Assembly: GCF_042656125.1 (NCBI RefSeq)
Contig: NZ_JBHSOC010000006.1
From: Kitasatospora cinereorecta
GTDB lineage: Bacteria > Actinomycetota > Actinomycetes > Streptomycetales > Streptomycetaceae
Direction: 5' to 3' (one strand)
DNA length: 24,000 bases
Below the pieces are notes generated by a model, which saw only the letters and a list, made by a program, of their open reading frames with translations, was not told where the DNA came from and did no database searches. Position numbers and translations under genes: made by a program. How positions within the stretch are numbered: position 1 is the first letter of the stretch; each line of letters begins with the position of its first letter. Shown piece by piece: positions 12,957 through 19,970 of the stretch.

Positions 12957-13502
12957 ATGACGTCACTCGAGTTGCGCACCGCGCTCGCCCGGCCGTCCCA
13001 GGCCGAGCGGGACCAGGCGCTGGACGTGCTGCGCGACGGCGTCGGCAACGGCCGGCTCTCGCACGACACCTTCATCCGCCGGATGGAGCTCGTCCTCACC
13101 GCCCGCAGCCGCGCCGAACTCGCCGACGTCGTCTCCGACCTCCACACCTACGGCCGGGTCTCCCGGCTGCTGCTGCGCACCGTCGCCAGGGTGTCCGCGC
13201 TGAACGTCCGGCTGCGGCACACCTGGCAGGCCGAGCAGGTGCCGCGGCTGCGCCTGCCCGGACCGGGCGTCACCCGGCTGACCATCGGCCGGATGACCGG
13301 ATCCGACCTGCGGCTGGGCGACAGCACCGTCTCCCGCAACCACGCCGAACTGCGGTGGGAGAGCGGCGACTGGGTGCTGCACGACCTCGGCTCCAGCAAC
13401 GGCACCTACGTCAACGACCTGCGGGTGGCCGGCGCCGTGGTGGTCCGCCCCGGCGACCTCGTCCGCTTCGGCCGCCAGGCCTTCCACCTCACCGTCGACT
13501 GA
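12957..13502 (+). CDS. DUF1707-like N-terminal domain plus C-terminal FHA domain protein
   Basis: The N-terminus RPSQAERDQALDVLRDGVGNGRLSHDTFIRRMELVLTARSRAEL is DUF1707/SHOCT-like. The C-terminus LTIGRMTGSDLRLGDSTVSRNHAELRWESGDWVLHDLGSSNGTYVNDLRV has the FHA core residues G-R...S-R-x-H...S-x-N-G-T. Confidence 0.85.
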   Translation: MTSLELRTALARPSQAERDQALDVLRDGVGNGRLSHDTFIRRMELVLTARSRAELADVVSDLHTYGRVSRLLLRTVARVSALNVRLRHTWQAEQVPRLRLPGPGVTRLTIGRMTGSDLRLGDSTVSRNHAELRWESGDWVLHDLGSSNGTYVNDLRVAGAVVVRPGDLVRFGRQAFHLTVD

Positions 13503-13529
13503 CCGACGCCCGCTGCGGTACCACCGGCG

Positions 13530-14162
13530 TCAGTACGTCCGGCAGAGCCCGGCCGCGCCCGCGCCGGTGGCCGCCGCGAGCCGGAGCATCCGCAGCGGCC
13601 CGTCCAGCAGCTCGGCCGGATCGTAGCCGGGTGCGTCACCGGTCGCGGCGATCCAGTCGGTGATCCCGGCCAGCACCTCGGCCCGGCGCCGACCGGAGAG
13701 GTCGAGCACCCGCTCGGCGGCGGGCAGCGAGTCCCGTACCTCCTGCGCCGTCAGCAGGAAGTCGCCCAGCATCCCCGGCAGCTGCAGCGCGGCGTCGTGG
13801 CCGAGCGCGTAGCAGAGCGCGGTGGCCGGGTCGGCCTTGCGCAGCACGGCGGCGAAGTGGGTGCCGGCCTGCTCGACGAGGTTCAGGCACGCCTCGCGCA
13901 GGGCCTCGGCAGCCGGTGTCTCCGGGTGGGCGGAGCGGACGAGCGCGGCGAAGCGCTCCGCGGCGCGCGTGGCGTGGACCCGGCCCCCGGAGTCGTGTTC
14001 GAGCATGGGTTCGCCACCCTCCGCCCACCACCGCAGGGAGTCGCCGAGATCACGCGAGGGCCCTCCGGTGCCCGGTTCCCACAGGTGGAGGAAGCGGAAC
14101 GGCAGGTCACGCGCCTCGGCGTCGGGAATCGGGCCGATCAGCCACAGTCCGGTCCAGCTCAT
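13530..14162 (-). CDS. Hypothetical protein (no recognisable family)
   Basis: Track ORF 13530..14198 starts at a TTG. I prefer the in-frame ATG at 14162 (MSWTGLWLIG...), but both starts have weak RBS. GC3-rich coding-like composition. Divergent from the toxin operon. Confidence 0.45.
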   Translation of the reverse strand: MSWTGLWLIGPIPDAEARDLPFRFLHLWEPGTGGPSRDLGDSLRWWAEGGEPMLEHDSGGRVHATRAAERFAALVRSAHPETPAAEALREACLNLVEQAGTHFAAVLRKADPATALCYALGHDAALQLPGMLGDFLLTAQEVRDSLPAAERVLDLSGRRRAEVLAGITDWIAATGDAPGYDPAELLDGPLRMLRLAAATGAGAAGLCRTY

Positions 14163-14280
14163 GGTCCCGAGTCTGGGACTGGTGGCGGACGACGGCAACC
14201 GCGTACCGTCATGAGGCGTCGTTAGCTTGTACTACCGATCCGTATTCTGGCGGTACGTCTGTGCGCGAGGGGGCACACTC

Positions 14281-15006
14281 ATGGCGATCGAACTGCCCGA
14301 CGAAGTGGTGTCGTTCCTCTCCGTCATCGGCATCAACTGGCCGACCGTGAACGAGGACAGCGTGCGGGAGTTCGCCTCCCACGTCCGGGAGTTCGCCGAG
14401 AACGTCGAGTCGGCGCACCAGGACTCCACCGCCACGATCCAGAAGCTGGGCGAGGCGTACGAGGGCGCGTCCTACGAGGCGCTGCTCGCCAAGTGGGCCC
14501 AGCTCTCCGACTCGCACATGAACGAGCTGGTCCAGGCCTGCCACGTGGTGGCCACCGCGCTGGACGTGGCCGCCGACGTGATCGTCGCCATGAAGGTCGA
14601 GACGATCGCCGAGCTGGTCGCGCTGGCCGCCGCGTTCATCGCCGACCAGGCGGCCGCCGTGGCCACCCTCGGCGCCGCCGAGGCGGCCGTCATCCTCATC
14701 GAGGAGGCGGCGAAGCGGTTGATCAACTACCTGGAGCAGCAGCTGGAGCAGTACATCATCGGCCAGGTGGTGACGGCCGCGATCGACCCGCTGGTGGAGG
14801 TCGTGGCGAACGCCGTCTCCGGGCTGGTGTTCCAGGCCGCCGAGGCCGCCCTCGGGGTGGACGGCGGCGGGGGCGGCGGCACCGGATTCCGGATCGACCC
14901 GGAGGCGCTGGAGGCCCACGCGCAGATGATGCACGACCACGCGGAGACCGTGGCCGGCCACGCGCAGACGTTCCAGGCCAAGGCGGCGGGGGTGAGCTTC
15001 GAATGA
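14281..15006 (+). CDS. WXG100-like / putative T7SS-signal-type helical protein (toxin trafficking module encoded as a separate ORF)
   Basis: Track ORF 14227..15006 trimmed to ATG 14281 (GAGGGGG upstream). The N-terminus MAIELPDEVVSFLSVIGINWPTVNEDSVREFASHVREFAENVE...LGEAYEGASYEALLAKW resembles the N-terminal helix-turn-helix domain of actinobacterial polymorphic toxins, with YEG in the WxG position. It is followed by Ala-rich amphipathic/hydrophobic helices, a G6 linker and a second helical segment FRIDPEALEAHAQMMHDHAETVAGHAQTF. Confidence 0.65.
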   Translation: MAIELPDEVVSFLSVIGINWPTVNEDSVREFASHVREFAENVESAHQDSTATIQKLGEAYEGASYEALLAKWAQLSDSHMNELVQACHVVATALDVAADVIVAMKVETIAELVALAAAFIADQAAAVATLGAAEAAVILIEEAAKRLINYLEQQLEQYIIGQVVTAAIDPLVEVVANAVSGLVFQAAEAALGVDGGGGGGTGFRIDPEALEAHAQMMHDHAETVAGHAQTFQAKAAGVSFE

Positions 15007-15995
15007 CCAACCAGATCGTGAAGGCGCTGGAAGAGGGCGCCCAGAAGATCGGCAAGACCCTCGCCGAGGACGCCGGCAAGGCCGTCAAGGACCTCTACCA
15101 CTCGGCCGGCGACAACCTGAAGAAGGTCGCCCACAACACCCGCGAGGCCGACCGCCACCACGAGGGCGAACTCAAGCGGATCCTCGGCGGCGGCTCCAAG
15201 AACGGCCCGCACGGCCCCGGCACCCCGCGCAGCCCGCACGGCCCGGCGGGCGAGGGCGGCAAGAAGAAGTACTTCATCCACGACGACGGCCGCGTCCAGG
15301 AGCTGCGCAACGGCAAGCTCCACGACCTGGACCCCAAGGACGGGTCCGGCATCCACACGCTGCTCGACTCCTCGAAGAAGGACCACGTCAAGGACCCGAC
15401 CGAGAAGGACATGCGGTCGACCTACCACGCCCGCAAGAACAAGAAGAACCCGAGCGAGAAGGTCTCCAGCGAGAAGATCGACTCGCCGACCGAGCTGTCC
15501 CACGCGGTCGAGGAGGCCCGCCGCGCCAAGGGCGACTACGGCGGCACCAACTACGCCTCCCTGCACTACAAGGACGCCGACGGCAAGGAGTTCGTGCTGG
15601 TCGGGCAGAGCGGCGACCTGCGCAGCCACTCCGAACGCTCGATCGGCAAGCCGCTGCTCGGCGGGCGCGAGGGCAACGTCCAGGAGCTGTACACCGAACG
15701 GGCGCCCTGCCAGAAGGACGCCAACTGCGAACGCTGGCTGGCCAGGCACTTCGAACCGCACAACGACGACATGAAGGTCAGCCACGGCGTCGACTACAAC
15801 AGCAGCCTCCCCAAGGAGGAGCGCGACTGGGGCCACAAGGCCTACCTCGACCAGCTCAAGCAGGACCACGCGGCCGGCAGCCACGGCGGCACCATGGGCT
15901 CCCACGACTTCGACGCGAAGGGGCAGGAGAACATGGAAGCCGCCGAGGCCAGGCGGCAGGAACGGGCCGCCAAGCGGGCCCGCAAGGGTCTGTAG
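15003..15995 (+). CDS. Polymorphic-toxin-type protein with a C-terminal zinc-dependent nucleic-acid deaminase domain (SCP1.201/DddA-like or YwqJ-like clade)
   Basis: ATG 15003 overlaps the upstream stop (ATGA, 15003-15006). The first 170 codons of track ORF 14493..15995 are an out-of-frame overlap with the previous gene. The protein has a helical N-terminus, a Gly/Pro linker, and a Lys-rich middle. The C-terminus reads YASLHYKDADGKEFVLVGQSGDLRSHSERSIGK...ELYTERAPCQKDANCERWLARHF, i.e. HxE (15627-15635) and PCx5C (15705-15728), the deaminase zinc/catalytic signature. Confidence 0.65.
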   Translation: MTNQIVKALEEGAQKIGKTLAEDAGKAVKDLYHSAGDNLKKVAHNTREADRHHEGELKRILGGGSKNGPHGPGTPRSPHGPAGEGGKKKYFIHDDGRVQELRNGKLHDLDPKDGSGIHTLLDSSKKDHVKDPTEKDMRSTYHARKNKKNPSEKVSSEKIDSPTELSHAVEEARRAKGDYGGTNYASLHYKDADGKEFVLVGQSGDLRSHSERSIGKPLLGGREGNVQELYTERAPCQKDANCERWLARHFEPHNDDMKVSHGVDYNSSLPKEERDWGHKAYLDQLKQDHAAGSHGGTMGSHDFDAKGQENMEAAEARRQERAAKRARKGL

Positions 15996-16027
15996 AGTCC
16001 ATGGCGCCGGAAGCGGAGGAGTGACGG

Positions 16028-16591
16028 ATGCTGGTGCAGATCGACTGGAGCGTGGTCTCCGGGGAACACGTCCCGGCGGGCGGGATGCTGCGGCTCCGCA
16101 AGGAGGCGGCGGCCCGGATCTGGTCCGACGAGGACGCGGCGCGGTTCGCCGTCGAGGTCGGCGTGCCGCACTCGAACGGCCTCTTCCGGATCGTCGCCGA
16201 ACTGGCCGAACGCGACCCGGCGAGCCCCGACTGGGCCTTCGTCGAGCCGTACGAGGGCGGCCGGGTCGACACCCCGCACGGACCGCTCCAGCAACTCGGC
16301 GAGGTCTACCAGTCGCTGGTGTACGTCCACCACGGCGACGGCACGGTCTGGATCTCCGACCCGGACTCCGAGGTCGAGTACGAGCTGGTCCACCGGGACC
16401 TGTCCTCGTTCGCGTACCTGGTCTACAAGATCGCCGCGGAGAAGCCCCGCCCCGAGGAGGACCCCGACCCGTTCGACTGGGCCGACGCCGAGGAGATCAT
16501 CCGCGAGGACACCACCGCCTGGGACCCGCTGCCCTTCGAGAGCGGCGCCCACTTCTGGGAGATGTACCTGGAGTCCTACCCGATGCTCTGA
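16028..16591 (+). CDS. SUKH-4-like immunity protein candidate
   Basis: GGAGGAG RBS, starting 32 nt after the toxin stop. An acidic 187-aa protein. The core DGTVWISDPDSEVEYELVHRDLSSFAYLVYKI ... AWDPLPFESGAHFWEMYLESY aligns by eye with the N-terminal domain of the next gene (GAEFYLAPDRTVRAVLLGVDVPEMPVSSGLDRFAAGLLLL ... LDPWAFEEREAWWPRVLDDL) and with my recollection of SUKH-4 proteins. Confidence 0.55.
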   Translation: MLVQIDWSVVSGEHVPAGGMLRLRKEAAARIWSDEDAARFAVEVGVPHSNGLFRIVAELAERDPASPDWAFVEPYEGGRVDTPHGPLQQLGEVYQSLVYVHHGDGTVWISDPDSEVEYELVHRDLSSFAYLVYKIAAEKPRPEEDPDPFDWADAEEIIREDTTAWDPLPFESGAHFWEMYLESYPML

Positions 16592-16724
16592 GCCGCGGCG
16601 CGGACCTGGTCGGACGCGAGGGCACGGCGGCCCGGGACCCGCTGCCCCGCGGCGGTGGGGGCGGTTCCGGGCGGGGTACCTTGAGGACAATCCGATGCTC
16701 TGGTGAAGGGACGAGTGCGCGCTG

Positions 16725-17558
16725 ATGAGTGATGACCTTTCCGCCGCGCTGGTGGCGCACTTCGGCGAGCGCGGCCTGCGAAGCCTGGAGTTCGCGCCCG
16801 AGGGGCCGCTGCGCAGCCCCGGGCTGCCGCTGCAGGTGGGGCCGTACTTCTTCGCGGCCGAGGCGTCGGATCCGCTGTCGCTCGGCCAGTACGCGGCCGG
16901 GCTCGGGACCGACGCCGGGCCGATGGCCGGTCAGCTGCGGATCGGGACGGACCGGGGCGCGGAGTTCTACCTGGCGCCGGACCGTACGGTGCGGGCCGTG
17001 CTGCTGGGGGTGGACGTCCCCGAGATGCCGGTCAGCTCCGGCCTGGACAGGTTCGCCGCCGGGCTGCTGCTGCTCGACCGGAACCTGCCCGCGCTGGCCT
17101 CGGCCGACGCTGACGACGCGTTCGCCGCGTACCTGCGGCTGCGGCAGGGGCTGCTGGAGCTGGACCCGTGGGCGTTCGAGGAGCGGGAGGCGTGGTGGCC
17201 GCGGGTGCTGGACGACCTGCGGCGGCCGCTGAACGTGGCGTCCTCGGCGGCGTTCGAGTACCTCGACGCGCAGGGGGCCAAGCAGATCGCGACCGAGTTC
17301 GGCGGGCCGGGCCTGCCGCACCCGGAGGAGCTGCTGTGGCACCGCCTGCGCGCGGAGGGCGTTGAACCCGAGCAGGTCACCGCGGTGTACTGCGAGCTGG
17401 AGCCGTGCCTGATGCCGGGTCACTACTGCGCGCTGTGGCTGGCGCAGACCTTCCCGGAGGCCGCGTTCACCCACCGCTTCGACTACGGCGAGAGCGCGGA
17501 GTCCCGGGAGGACGGGATCAAGGCGCTCATGATCAGCTTGGCCGAGCAGCAGAGCTGA
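16725..17558 (+). CDS. SUKH-4-like domain fused to a deaminase domain paralogous to the upstream toxin
   Basis: Residues 1-165 are SUKH-4-like (see previous entry). Residues ~170-260 read AFEYLDAQGAKQIATEFGGPGLPHPEELLWHRL...AVYCELEPCLMPGHYCALWLAQTF...HRFDYG. They align position-for-position with the toxin's SLHYKDADGKEFVLVGQSGDLRSHSERSIG...ELYTERAPCQKDANCERWLARHF...HGVDYN. HxE is at 17319-17327 and PCx6C at 17403-17429. Confidence 0.65.
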   Translation: MSDDLSAALVAHFGERGLRSLEFAPEGPLRSPGLPLQVGPYFFAAEASDPLSLGQYAAGLGTDAGPMAGQLRIGTDRGAEFYLAPDRTVRAVLLGVDVPEMPVSSGLDRFAAGLLLLDRNLPALASADADDAFAAYLRLRQGLLELDPWAFEEREAWWPRVLDDLRRPLNVASSAAFEYLDAQGAKQIATEFGGPGLPHPEELLWHRLRAEGVEPEQVTAVYCELEPCLMPGHYCALWLAQTFPEAAFTHRFDYGESAESREDGIKALMISLAEQQS

Positions 17559-17645
17559 GCGGTCGGGGCCGAGCGGCCGGGCCGAGCAGGCAGACGAGAA
17601 CGACGAGCGCGGCGGGACGGCCGTACGGCGGGGGAGGGCGTGAGC

Positions 17646-19436
17646 ATGACTGAGGGCGGGTGGCGGATTCCGGCGCTGGGAGCCGGGCGGCGACCGGCGG
17701 GTCTGGCGCTCTTCGGATGGCTGGACGACCCACGGGCACCCCGGCTGTGCCGGGTGGCGGGCTCCGCGGGGTCGGGCAAGTCGCACCTGCTGGCGTGGCT
17801 GGTGCAGGCCGGGACGACCGAGGAGACTCCGGGCGACCGGCGGGTGCACGCGGTGCTGCCGGCGGCCGGGGCGAGCCTGCGGGCCGTGGTCTGGTCGCTG
17901 GGGCAGCAGTTGGGCGTGGTGGCGCACCGGCCCGGGCCGCTGCTGGAGGTGCTGGCCGCCGACGAGCGGCGCACCGTGCTGTGCGTGCCCGAGCTCGACC
18001 TCGCCGCCGAACCGCAGCGGCTGGTCGAGGAACTGCTCGACCCGATGCTGCGCCTGCCGCACGTCCGGCTGGTGGTGGAGGCCGCCACCGGCGGCGCTGC
18101 CGCGTCGGCGTTCACGGCGGTCGCGGACCCGGCCGTGCTCGACCTGGACGAGCCGCAGTGGACCGACCGGGAGCGCTTCGCCGCCTGGGCCGCCACCGCG
18201 GGCGCCGACCCGGAGGGCTTCCCGCACCCCGGCCGGTCGCTCGGCCGGGCCGCGCCGCCGCCCCCGGCGAGCGCACCGGAGCTGATCGCCCTGGTCGCCC
18301 GCACCCCCGAGGGCAAGCTCGACCTGCGTGCGGCCGGCGAGGACCTGCTCACCGAACTGTGGACCGCCGCCGCCCGGATCGGCGACCTCGGCCCGCTGGC
18401 CGCCGACCCGCTGCTCTGGGCGCTGGCCCGGCCGGTCGCCGTGACGGCCGCCGTCGAGGGCCGCGACGACGCCCTGGCCCGGCCGTGGGACGCGGTCGGC
18501 CCCGCCCTGGCCGAGGAGCCCGACCCGGCGGTGCGCGCCGCCGTGCTGCGCACCCGGCTGCTGGGCACCGACCCCGCCGCGGCGGCCGCACTGCCCACCA
18601 CCGGCGGCCGCTGGGTCGCCCGCTGGGCGCAGTGGTCGGACGGCCGGACGGACCCGGTGGCCGCGGTCGGCGCACTCACCGTCGGCGCCGGCGAGTACGT
18701 CGCGCAGCTGCTGGTGACCGACCCGACCGGTGCGGTGCGCACCCTGGACGCCGCCACCGGCCGCCGGCTCGGCACCGTGGTGCTGCCCGCGCCGCGGCCG
18801 TGGCGCGGGCTCGCGGTCACCTCGGCCGGCGCCGTGGTGCTGCTCGACGGGTACGGCGGCGCCGAACTGGTGGCGCCGACCGAGCAGCGGCCCGGACTGG
18901 AGCCGTACGCGCTCCAGGAGGCGCTGGACGAGATCGCCGCCGAGGCGGCCGAACTCACCGCGGTGGCCGCCGTCGGCCGGCTCCCGAAGGCCGCGCCGGC
19001 CTTCGGCGACGCGGCCGGGGTGGTGCACTGGTACCAGGACGGCCTGGTGGAGAGCGAGCGGCTGCACCGCGGCGCGGTCACCGCCCTCGCCGGTACGGCG
19101 CTGGCCGCCGAGGGCCGGGCCGACCCGGAGATCCCGCTGCTGGCCAGCGGTGGCCTGGACGGCGCGGTGCGCCTGTGGGGCCCCGGCACCGTGCCCATGA
19201 ACCAGCCGATCGACCTGCACCCCCACCCGGTCACCGCGGTGGCGGTCGGCACCACGGCGGCCGGGCCGGTGGTGGCCGCCGCCTGGGCCGACGGGCTGGT
19301 CCGGCTGCGCCACCTGAACGGCGACACCGACGTCCTCGACCTGCGGGTCGGCCCGGAGGTGCACGCCCTGGCGATGGTCGGCAACCTGCTGGTGGTCGGC
19401 ACCCCGGACGGCGTCGCCGCGATCGACACCCACTGA
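17646..19436 (+). CDS. P-loop NTPase (STAND/NACHT-like) with C-terminal WD40-type beta-propeller repeats
   Basis: I prefer ATG 17646 (GGAGG 8 nt upstream) over GTG 17640. Walker A is GSAGSGKS (17760-17783) and a Walker-B-like RTVLCVPELD follows. An Ala/Pro-rich helical middle comes next. The C-terminal repeats include a canonical WD unit HRGAVTALAG...PLLASGGLDGAVRLWGP, then HPHPVTAVAV...AAAWADGLVRLRHL and VHALAMVGNLLVVGTPDGVAAIDTH. Confidence 0.7.
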   Translation: MTEGGWRIPALGAGRRPAGLALFGWLDDPRAPRLCRVAGSAGSGKSHLLAWLVQAGTTEETPGDRRVHAVLPAAGASLRAVVWSLGQQLGVVAHRPGPLLEVLAADERRTVLCVPELDLAAEPQRLVEELLDPMLRLPHVRLVVEAATGGAAASAFTAVADPAVLDLDEPQWTDRERFAAWAATAGADPEGFPHPGRSLGRAAPPPPASAPELIALVARTPEGKLDLRAAGEDLLTELWTAAARIGDLGPLAADPLLWALARPVAVTAAVEGRDDALARPWDAVGPALAEEPDPAVRAAVLRTRLLGTDPAAAAALPTTGGRWVARWAQWSDGRTDPVAAVGALTVGAGEYVAQLLVTDPTGAVRTLDAATGRRLGTVVLPAPRPWRGLAVTSAGAVVLLDGYGGAELVAPTEQRPGLEPYALQEALDEIAAEAAELTAVAAVGRLPKAAPAFGDAAGVVHWYQDGLVESERLHRGAVTALAGTALAAEGRADPEIPLLASGGLDGAVRLWGPGTVPMNQPIDLHPHPVTAVAVGTTAAGPVVAAAWADGLVRLRHLNGDTDVLDLRVGPEVHALAMVGNLLVVGTPDGVAAIDTH

Positions 19437-19492
19437 CGCCCCCGGACGGGAGGCTCCGACCGGCGTGGTCCGCCGATCCGTGCGATGATCGA

Positions 19493-19506
19493 AAAGAATT
19501 TTCTTT
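19493..19506. promoter_or_regulatory. AT-rich inverted repeat AAAGAA-TT-TTCTTT upstream of marR (candidate operator/promoter element)
   Basis: This is the lowest-GC stretch of the window (19485-19535: gatgatcgaaaagaattttctttagcgagagtaatgacataggctaaggacc). 6-bp arms with a 2-bp spacer. A TAGGCT -10-like hexamer and an AAGGA RBS follow before ATG 19536. Confidence 0.35.
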
Positions 19507-19535
19507 AGCGAGAGTAATGACATAGGCTAAGGACC

Positions 19536-19970
19536 ATGCCCGAGATGTCCGAGGACGACCTGGCGGCCATCAGCCAGCTCAGATCGTCCGCGATGCGCCT
19601 CGCCCGCCGGTTGCGACACCAGCGGGTCGAGGAGTCGCTGAGCCCCACCGAAATGGGGGTGCTCGGCACGCTTGCCCGCTGCGGCAGAGCCACGCCTGGC
19701 GAACTCGCCAGGAAGGAGCACGTCCAGCCGCCGTCGATGACCAGAATCATCGCGATGCTGGAGGAGAAGGGACTGGTACGGCGCGAGCCGCACCCCGAGG
19801 ACCGCCGACAGGTGGTCGTCAGCAGTACCGAGCAGGCGGAGACGATCCTCAACGAGAGTCGCCGCCGACGGAACGCCTGGCTGGCCGAACTGGCCGAAGG
19901 GCTCACCGACGAGGAGTGGGCCGTCCTGCGCGACGCCGCCCCCGTGCTCTACAAGCTCGCCCACCTCTGA
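19536..19970 (+). CDS. MarR-family transcriptional regulator
   Basis: LSPTEMGVLGTLARCGRATPGELARKEHVQPPSMTRIIAMLEEKGLVRREPHPEDRRQVVVSST is the canonical MarR winged-helix with the DRR wing motif. Confidence 0.9.
   Translation: MPEMSEDDLAAISQLRSSAMRLARRLRHQRVEESLSPTEMGVLGTLARCGRATPGELARKEHVQPPSMTRIIAMLEEKGLVRREPHPEDRRQVVVSSTEQAETILNESRRRRNAWLAELAEGLTDEEWAVLRDAAPVLYKLAHL

Follow-up and report, generated by a model that had tools for sequence, protein, structure and literature searches.

A probable deaminase toxin of the XOO_2897 clade, its SUKH-4 immunity partner, and WXG100-type delivery in a five-gene cassette of Kitasatospora

The window analyzed here, a stretch of 24,000 nucleotides from Kitasatospora cinereorecta (assembly GCF_042656125.1, contig NZ_JBHSOC010000006.1), is high-G+C actinobacterial DNA (~72% G+C) and contains a cassette of five genes, the second of which encodes a 330-amino acid (aa) protein with a deaminase domain. 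This gene and its immediate neighbors are best explained as a deaminase toxin of the XOO_2897 clade, an immunity partner of the SUKH-4 family, and a delivery module of the WXG100 type, a reading to which we assign a probability of about 0.78. The protein is 100% identical to a K. cinereorecta entry (GCA_039533705.1, contig BAAAUA010000006.1) that NCBI names “nucleic acid/nucleotide deaminase domain-containing protein”; it is a new, experimentally uncharacterized member of a known family, already annotated in generic terms. The genes of the cassette and the parts of the toxin are as follows (positions are those of the window).

14281..15006, + strand: WXG100-like helper/export gene, 241 aa, with matches to Pfam WXG100_2 and WXG100; its stop codon overlaps the toxin start (ATGA)
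15003..15995, + strand: toxin gene, 330 aa, isoelectric point (pI) 8.6, 35 lysines
15003..15185, + strand: toxin aa 1-61, single long N-terminal helix, a putative modular delivery adaptor (AlphaFold2, RHS homology)
15186..15254, + strand: toxin aa 62-84, Gly/Pro-rich disordered linker (AlphaFold2, homolog alignment)
15255..15479, + strand: toxin aa 85-159, beta-rich subdomain (AlphaFold2), outside every Pfam model
15480..15902, + strand: toxin aa 160-300, deaminase core of the XOO_2897 type (PF14440, AlphaFold2)
15627..15635, + strand: H209-S-E211, predicted zinc ligand and catalytic glutamate (motif, alignment)
15705..15728, + strand: P235-C236...C242 (PCx5C), two predicted cysteine zinc ligands (motif, alignment)
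15909..15983, + strand: toxin aa 303-327, basic C-terminal helix found in the Kitasatospora branch only (AlphaFold2)
16028..16591, + strand: SUKH-4 immunity gene, 187 aa, pI 4.4 (PF14435, E = 1.8e-21)
16725..17558, + strand: fusion of SUKH-4 with an XOO_2897 deaminase, without an export module, 277 aa (PF14435 and PF14440)
17640..19436, + strand: P-loop NTPase and WD40 beta-propeller protein, 598 aa (NCBI places the start at 17646)

The residues of the zinc site named in the preliminary description, which had been made from the sequence of the window, proved to lie exactly where it put them: H209-S-E211 at 15627-15635, P235-C236 at 15705-15710, and C242 at 15726-15728. The segment FVLVGQSG (aa 197-204), described there as strand-like, falls in a beta-strand (E196-202) of the AlphaFold2 model, immediately ahead of the HSE helix. 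The toxin domain had been equated with the last ~150 aa; the motif does lie in this part, but the confidently folded module is larger and spans residues 85-330. The pattern [HC]xE-x15-40-PC-x2-8-C arose in 34 of 200,000 composition-preserving shuffles of the toxin and occurred twice among the 124 six-frame open reading frames (ORFs) of at least 100 aa in the window, once in the toxin and once (17319-17429) in the second deaminase gene of the cassette. In an alignment of 22 homologs, S210, E211, T231-E232-R233, P235, C236, C242, and W245 are invariant, and H209 is kept in at least 90%; in one metagenome homolog, P0037, the zinc-binding His is replaced by N. The two halves of the set, H209/E211 and C236/C242, are located at the starts of the predicted helices 210-218 and 242-249.

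In a Pfam hmmscan search, toxin aa 180-266 matched PF14440, the XOO_2897-like deaminase family, with E = 1.2e-11 (45 bits; cut-off, 27) over profile positions 1-85 of 101, and the same family was present in all 37 full-length homologs. Given the rarity of the motif in shuffles and ORFs, the conservation of its residues, and the PF14440 match, the signature is not a chance resemblance, and the claim of a deaminase-superfamily toxin domain with an intact zinc and catalytic set stands. By analogy with the superfamily, H209, C236, and C242 would hold a zinc-bound water in a recipient cell, E211 would shuttle a proton, and the amino group of a base would be hydrolyzed.

PF14440 was the sole deaminase family that matched the toxin at E≤1; neither SCP1.201 (PF14428) nor YwqJ (PF14431) matched at this threshold. 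The profile search thus gave the significant deaminase match that had been anticipated, but to neither of the two clades, SCP1.201/DddA-like or YwqJ-like, in which the preliminary description had placed the domain. A toxin of either kind, possibly acting on double-stranded DNA (dsDNA) in the DddA case, would have in common with the present one the generic HxE...PC...C zinc signature and the layout of toxin and immunity genes, and DddA is among the weak fold matches reported below; nevertheless, we consider this alternative very improbable, because the diagnostic features of both clades are absent. The published classification (PMC3239186) assigns XOO_2897, together with AID/APOBEC and OTT_1508, to the helix-4 division of the superfamily, and SCP1.201 and YwqJ to the division with a C-terminal hairpin. 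The signature of SCP1.201 is [HD]xEx[KQ] in helix 2 and an N that ends strand 3, and that of YwqJ is Gx[CH]xE in helix 2; the published immunity partners are SUKH-4 for XOO_2897, Imm1 or Imm4 for SCP1.201, and SUKH3 or Imm6 for YwqJ (PMC3239186). The toxin reads H-S-E-R-S at the first of these positions, its strand 3 ends in ...YTER, and strand 4 is followed by helix 4 instead of a hairpin. Where Gx[CH]xE would be expected, it reads R-S-H-S-E, and its partner is SUKH-4.

By contrast, the traits of the XOO_2897 clade are all present. The invariant E232 (TER-A-PC) corresponds, on our reading of Table 1 of Iyer 2011, to the conserved E between strand 3 and helix 3, and in the fusion paralog the aligned residue, E224, is likewise invariant. 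The aromatic residue expected after strand 4 is the invariant Y265, between strand 258-263 and helix 271-290; its counterpart in the fusion, Y254, is also invariant. Both AlphaFold2 models, of the toxin and of the fusion, are predicted to end after helix 4 without strand 5. The genomic context agrees as well: XOO_2897 has been connected with type VII secretion (T7SS) and with SUKH-4 (PMC3239186), and a WXG100_2/WXG100 gene lies upstream of the toxin and a SUKH-4 gene downstream, an arrangement kept in related loci. On these features, we place the predicted domain in the XOO_2897 clade, not in SCP1.201/DddA or YwqJ, and the expectation of a DddA-like activity on dsDNA therefore has no basis. 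Searches with PADLOC and NCBIfam returned nothing for the toxin, the SUKH-4 protein, or the fusion. A profile built from the 22-homolog alignment retrieved no deaminase by sequence from the PDB and no DddA chain at E≤10, and sequence and profile searches of the PDB with the toxin and fusion alignments yielded no solved relative.

The AlphaFold2 model of the toxin has a mean predicted local distance difference test score (pLDDT) of 81.9 and a predicted template modeling score (pTM) of 0.72, and it is confident from residue 85 to residue 330. Helix 3-61 is long and isolated (pLDDT ~55), and the linker residues 62-83, which are variable in length among homologs, have pLDDT below 50. According to the model, this flexible Gly/Pro linker would connect the helix to a toxin module (aa 85-330) made up of the beta-rich subdomain, the deaminase core, and a basic tail. 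Subdomain 85-159 (pLDDT 84-96) contains strands 88-92, 97-102, 105-108, and 125-129, and its residues Y90, D94, G96, G104, and D113 are conserved, the fused Streptomyces toxins included. The core consists of helix 164-176, strands 184-190 and 196-202, helix 210-218, strand 226-233, helix 242-249, strand 258-263, and helix 271-290, with helix 2 beginning at HSE and helix 3 at C242; a fifth strand is absent. The predicted fold thus shows the deaminase order of elements ending after helix 4, as published for the XOO_2897 clade. Helix 303-327 is predicted with high confidence (pLDDT 94-97) in a tail (aa 301-330) of pI 9.7 and is missing from the Streptomyces homologs in the alignment. This helix and the beta-rich subdomain are the confidently predicted parts of the toxin module that lie outside its Pfam domain; they may serve in substrate binding, in cell entry, or in contact with the immunity protein. 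Foldseek against the PDB gave weak matches only, the top ones all deaminases: APOBEC3C was the best (E = 0.019), followed by APOBEC3F, APOBEC2, DddA (6u08, E = 0.094), and AID; APOBEC3H was also among the weak matches.

The most likely substrate is cytosine in single-stranded DNA (ssDNA). To judge from assays on other clade members, deamination would yield uracil, mutation, and repair-dependent damage. XOO_2897 was classed with AID/APOBEC, with cytosine predicted as the target (PMC3239186), the nearest solved folds are APOBEC3 proteins, and XOO_2897-clade domains gave ssDNA cytidine deamination (C-to-T) in a base-editor reporter (bioRxiv 10.1101/2023.05.21.541555). All three points speak against an XOO_2897 toxin acting instead on RNA (tRNA or rRNA), on free nucleotides, or on adenine or guanine, an alternative that we regard as unlikely. 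In its favor, the superfamily includes RNA, nucleotide, and base deaminases, the substrate is not dictated by sequence, a particular specificity could come from the beta-rich subdomain (aa 85-159) and the basic tail, and the clade is backed by a reporter-level statement only. Searching the literature on PF14440 and on Streptomyces T7SS deaminase toxins, we found only comparative papers from 2011-2012 and the 2023 base-editor preprint, which was the sole source of functional evidence for the XOO_2897 family in that literature.

The product of 14281-15006 matched WXG100_2 (E = 6e-14) and WXG100 (E = 1.2e-12) in Pfam, and TIGR03930 below the cut-off; together with the N-terminal helix of the toxin itself, it represents the export-associated module that the preliminary description had suspected upstream. 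Related loci show two arrangements: in 50, the WXG100-like domain and the toxin form one protein, and in 23, the domain has a gene of its own, which in every case overlaps that of the toxin by 4 bp (ATGA or GTGA). Fused WXG100-toxin proteins of Streptomyces are 508-587 aa long, and the N-terminus of one of these (P0033) is 26% identical to the WXG100-like protein of the window. The split form is annotated as two genes in several genera. The precise overlap in all 23 split loci implies conserved translational coupling and rules out a frameshift artifact. Nor is it credible to any great extent that the split pair is a frameshifted pseudogene or the deaminase a catalytically dead remnant, as the single ORF in Streptomyces and the P0037 substitution could be taken to suggest: the catalytic set is complete in this protein and shows little or no variation among homologs, and the G+C content at third codon positions of the toxin gene (0.97) is like that of the adjacent genes. 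The toxin is further distinguished by its 35 lysines (10.6%), against 2-5 in each of the other four cassette proteins, and these account for the AT skew of 0.47 at 15001-16000.

The N-terminus of Streptomyces DUF6531/RHS toxins shares 64% identity with residues 1-88 of the toxin. A WXG100-like gene, 75% identical to 14281-15006, again lies ahead of the RHS toxin gene and overlaps it by 4 bp, and RHS repeats and an Imm53 gene are found downstream in that locus. A common N-terminal trafficking module joined to alternative C-terminal toxins is a hallmark of polymorphic toxins (Zhang et al. 2012), and the occurrence of the same helper and helix ahead of the RHS toxin is a case of one delivery module with different payloads. 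A separate upstream gene for a targeting factor has a recent precedent in an actinobacterial T7SS toxin (PMC12691689). For export, the translationally coupled WXG100-like protein may pair with the 61-residue N-terminal helix, and the two together may form a helical signal recognized by an ESX/type VII secretion system. The toxin subfamily, which comprises 64 clusters at 50% identity among 1.84 billion representative proteins, also includes P0167, a 1555-aa protein with annexin repeats and a C-terminal deaminase 43% identical to the toxin core; judging by its domains, P0167 represents another delivery context for this subfamily.

The gene beginning 32 bp after the toxin stop was rightly recognized in the preliminary description as a SUKH-type gene; it belongs to SUKH-4 (E = 1.8e-21). 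In related loci, the toxin is followed by one to three copies of SUKH-4; two or three in tandem occur in L016 and several others. The toxin is basic (pI 8.6) and the SUKH-4 protein acidic (pI 4.4). From the known association of this family with toxins, the acidic protein would bind and block the toxin in the producer and its kin. The median identity of SUKH-4 proteins to that of the window is 59% within Kitasatospora and 27% in Streptomyces. Within Kitasatospora, the toxin and SUKH-4 are 55-59% identical, compared with 92% for the flanking MarR, and thus diverge faster; a tightly linked, diversifying immunity gene is another mark of polymorphic toxins (Zhang et al. 2012).

The distribution of the cassette was surveyed with the fusion alignment, using one genome per species; this identified 155 relatives, and the best 80 loci were examined with purpose-built hidden Markov models. 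All five components were found within 10 kb in 69 of the 80 loci, and at least 6 of the 11 incomplete loci are truncated by contig ends. Toxin and fusion are linked in 72 loci, and the fusion adjoins the P-loop/WD40 gene in 75. Nine annotated loci, which represent Kitasatospora, Streptacidiphilus, Streptomyces, and Embleya, contain all the components. The gene order differs: helper-toxin-SUKH4-fusion-NTPase in Kitasatospora, fusion-NTPase-helper::toxin-SUKH4 in Streptomyces, and toxin-SUKH4-fusion-NTPase-helper in Embleya. Identity to Streptomyces is 43% for the toxin core, 27% for SUKH-4, and 63% for the fusion deaminase. The MarR gene is ~92% identical across 15 Kitasatospora loci, compared with 55-75% for the cassette proteins, so the whole cassette evolves fast at a stable chromosomal site. 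The genes flanking the cassette in the window are as follows.

12957-13502: FHA/DUF1707 gene, upstream flank
13530-14198, - strand: unannotated ORF of 222 aa, upstream flank
19536-19970, + strand: MarR gene, just 3' of the cassette

Neither upstream gene was retained as a member of the cassette: the minus-strand ORF has a homolog in one related locus, and the FHA/DUF1707 gene in none. Unlike the downstream MarR gene, the upstream flank is not conserved. A scan of 13400-19800 for promoters and terminators returned no sites, and such a scan is uninformative at 72% G+C.

The fusion contains PF14435 at aa 28-164 and PF14440 at aa 173-269, the latter with E = 2.9e-24, a stronger match than that of the toxin. 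Its HPEE, CELEPC, and C235 are invariant across 21 homologs, and the mean column identity in this set is 61%, compared with 31% for the 22 toxin homologs. The AlphaFold2 model (pLDDT 80.9, pTM 0.70) has the same deaminase topology as the toxin. Homologs fall into at least 184 clusters, all from Streptomycetaceae. From its sequence, the fusion is apparently an active cytoplasmic deaminase tethered to an immunity-type domain. The P-loop/WD40 protein has an invariant Walker A motif, GSAGSGKS, with weak P-loop matches to NACHT, AAA_16, and DpdH, and its C-terminal half matches WD40 propellers (profile E = 1e-23; PkwA, 4e-17). In PADLOC and NCBIfam, no known defense-system model matched this protein, the P-loop matches (DpdH and mad8) being sub-threshold. 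Of eight annotated loci, three show a 4-bp overlap between the fusion gene and the P-loop/WD40 gene.

In 5 of the 80 loci (L055, L058, L061, L073, and L090), the fusion stands alone, with no toxin, SUKH-4, or P-loop/WD40 gene within 10 kb, although the contig of L061 ends just downstream of it. The lone fusion of L055 is flanked on one side by a pentapeptide-repeat protein and on the other by a 1365-aa ORF containing a SWIM zinc finger; these neighbors are unrelated and thus provide no functional clue. Several loci have further proteins near the cassette: an 805-aa protein with both XOO_2897 deaminase and SUKH-4 domains in L005 (16108-16831, - strand), a 2024-aa TIR/NACHT/WD40 protein in L004 (12819-16882, - strand), and a WYL regulator in L009.

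Several observations weigh against the interpretation of the locus as an exported toxin with its immunity and delivery partners. Toxicity, secretion, immunity, and substrate are all inferred, for the toxin as for its close relatives, and the published screen is a clade-level reporter statement. No T7SS core gene was found within 8-10 kb of any annotated locus, and we therefore infer the export route by T7SS from domain associations. The C-terminal domain of the cassette toxin is always XOO_2897, unlike in classic polymorphic toxins, and two co-inherited extra genes are left unexplained by a simple toxin-immunity model. As an alternative, the cassette would be an intracellular conflict, defense, or developmental system in which both deaminases act in the producer under control of the P-loop/WD40 protein and the WXG100-like part serves as an assembly or regulatory module. 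The co-inheritance of the five components, the second deaminase with its invariant catalytic residues and no export module, the absence of nearby T7SS genes, and the defense-type neighbors in some loci (TIR-NACHT-WD40 in L004 and the WYL regulator in L009) are all compatible with this scenario. However, the comparative literature treats WXG100 as a strict marker of T7SS substrates, the helper gene and N-terminal helix also serve an RHS toxin with an Imm53 gene of its own, SUKH-4 is duplicated as in immunity arrays, and PADLOC gave no defense model for the five cassette proteins beyond weak P-loop noise. A purely intracellular system is, in our estimate, distinctly unlikely.

Within the preferred reading, that of an exported XOO_2897-clade toxin, possible roles for the fusion and the P-loop/WD40 protein are a gated intracellular deaminase, a device for stripping immunity and loading the toxin for export, and a second layer of immunity. 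We tentatively suggest, as a possibility that we do not hold to be probable, that the two make up an intracellular deaminase module of an undescribed kind, which would be regulated and obligatorily tied to the exported toxin. This suggestion is based on the 69 of 80 complete loci in three gene orders, the invariant catalytic residues and higher conservation of the fusion, the 4-bp overlaps between the fusion and P-loop genes, and the lack of a description of the SUKH/deaminase/STAND/WD40 combination in the literature searched. Such a module may be an NTPase-gated, self-inhibited editor or mutator, or else a machine that strips immunity and loads the toxin for export. Were the suggestion correct, the locus would be a five-component system and not a simple toxin-immunity pair.

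The toxin domain adds a branch to a deaminase clade without a detectable solved structure. Its catalytic core is compact, ~140 residues and possibly up to ~245 with the flanking subdomains. Given this size and the kinship with AID/APOBEC rather than DddA, the domain is a reasonable, but not exceptional, candidate for ssDNA base editing and a poor one for dsDNA editing. The accessory pair of the fusion and the P-loop/WD40 protein is more worth following than the toxin domain. An exported deaminase and its SUKH-4 partner appear to be retained across Streptomycetaceae alongside a second deaminase and a P-loop/WD40 protein, and working out what this pair does could show how a mutagenic toxin is handled, licensed, or exploited by the cells that make it.

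Among characterized systems, DddA (SCP1.201 clade; a type VI secretion system (T6SS) effector of Burkholderia cenocepacia; PDB 6U08) resembles the cassette toxin in superfamily fold and zinc chemistry and as an interbacterial deaminase toxin with an adjacent neutralizing immunity protein, here a predicted one. It differs in belonging to the C-terminal-hairpin and not the helix-4 division, in showing no sequence match, and in its secretion system and immunity family. YwqJ/YwqK of Bacillus subtilis is likewise a T7SS deaminase toxin whose immunity protein is a SUKH-family member, but the deaminase belongs to a different clade and the partner to SUKH-3. AID/APOBEC enzymes provide the best, though weak, matches among solved structures (APOBEC3C, 3F, and 3H, APOBEC2, and AID); no similarity to the toxin is detectable at the sequence level, and unlike the toxin, these enzymes are eukaryotic and have strand 5, two extra C-terminal helices, and PCxxC spacing.

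The delivery module has a parallel in the LXG toxins of T7SSb and their Lap factors. In these, small helical helpers encoded just upstream are required for presenting an N-terminal helical toxin domain to the T7SS, and an immunity gene lies downstream (Klein et al. 2022 and 2024, cited in PMC12691689); unlike the present one, these are systems of Firmicutes, with the LXG and DUF3130/DUF3958 families. Here, moreover, the greater share comes from the helper (241 aa, WXG100_2), with only ~60 residues supplied by the toxin. The nearest precedent for the fusion is found in the OTT_1508-like toxins, a sister clade of XOO_2897 in which an immunity-type domain is fused to a toxin-type deaminase (PMC3239186). 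In these, the fused domain is SUFU, whereas here it is SUKH-4, and the fusion of the cassette lacks a trafficking domain and is paired with a P-loop/WD40 gene.

The closest relatives are the XOO_2897-like toxins (PF14440), with which the cassette toxin shares the HxE and PC...C zinc site and the Glu before PC (PMC3239186), as well as the aromatic residue after strand 4, the truncation after helix 4, the WXG/T7SS link, and the SUKH-4 partner. The prototype, XOO_2897 itself, is a T6SS-associated Xanthomonas protein without an immunity gene, unlike the cassette toxin. Compared with this family as a whole, the toxin described here has its WXG100 domain in a separate, translationally coupled gene, adds a beta-rich subdomain (aa 85-159) and a basic C-terminal helix, and is accompanied by a SUKH-4::deaminase fusion and a P-loop/WD40 gene.

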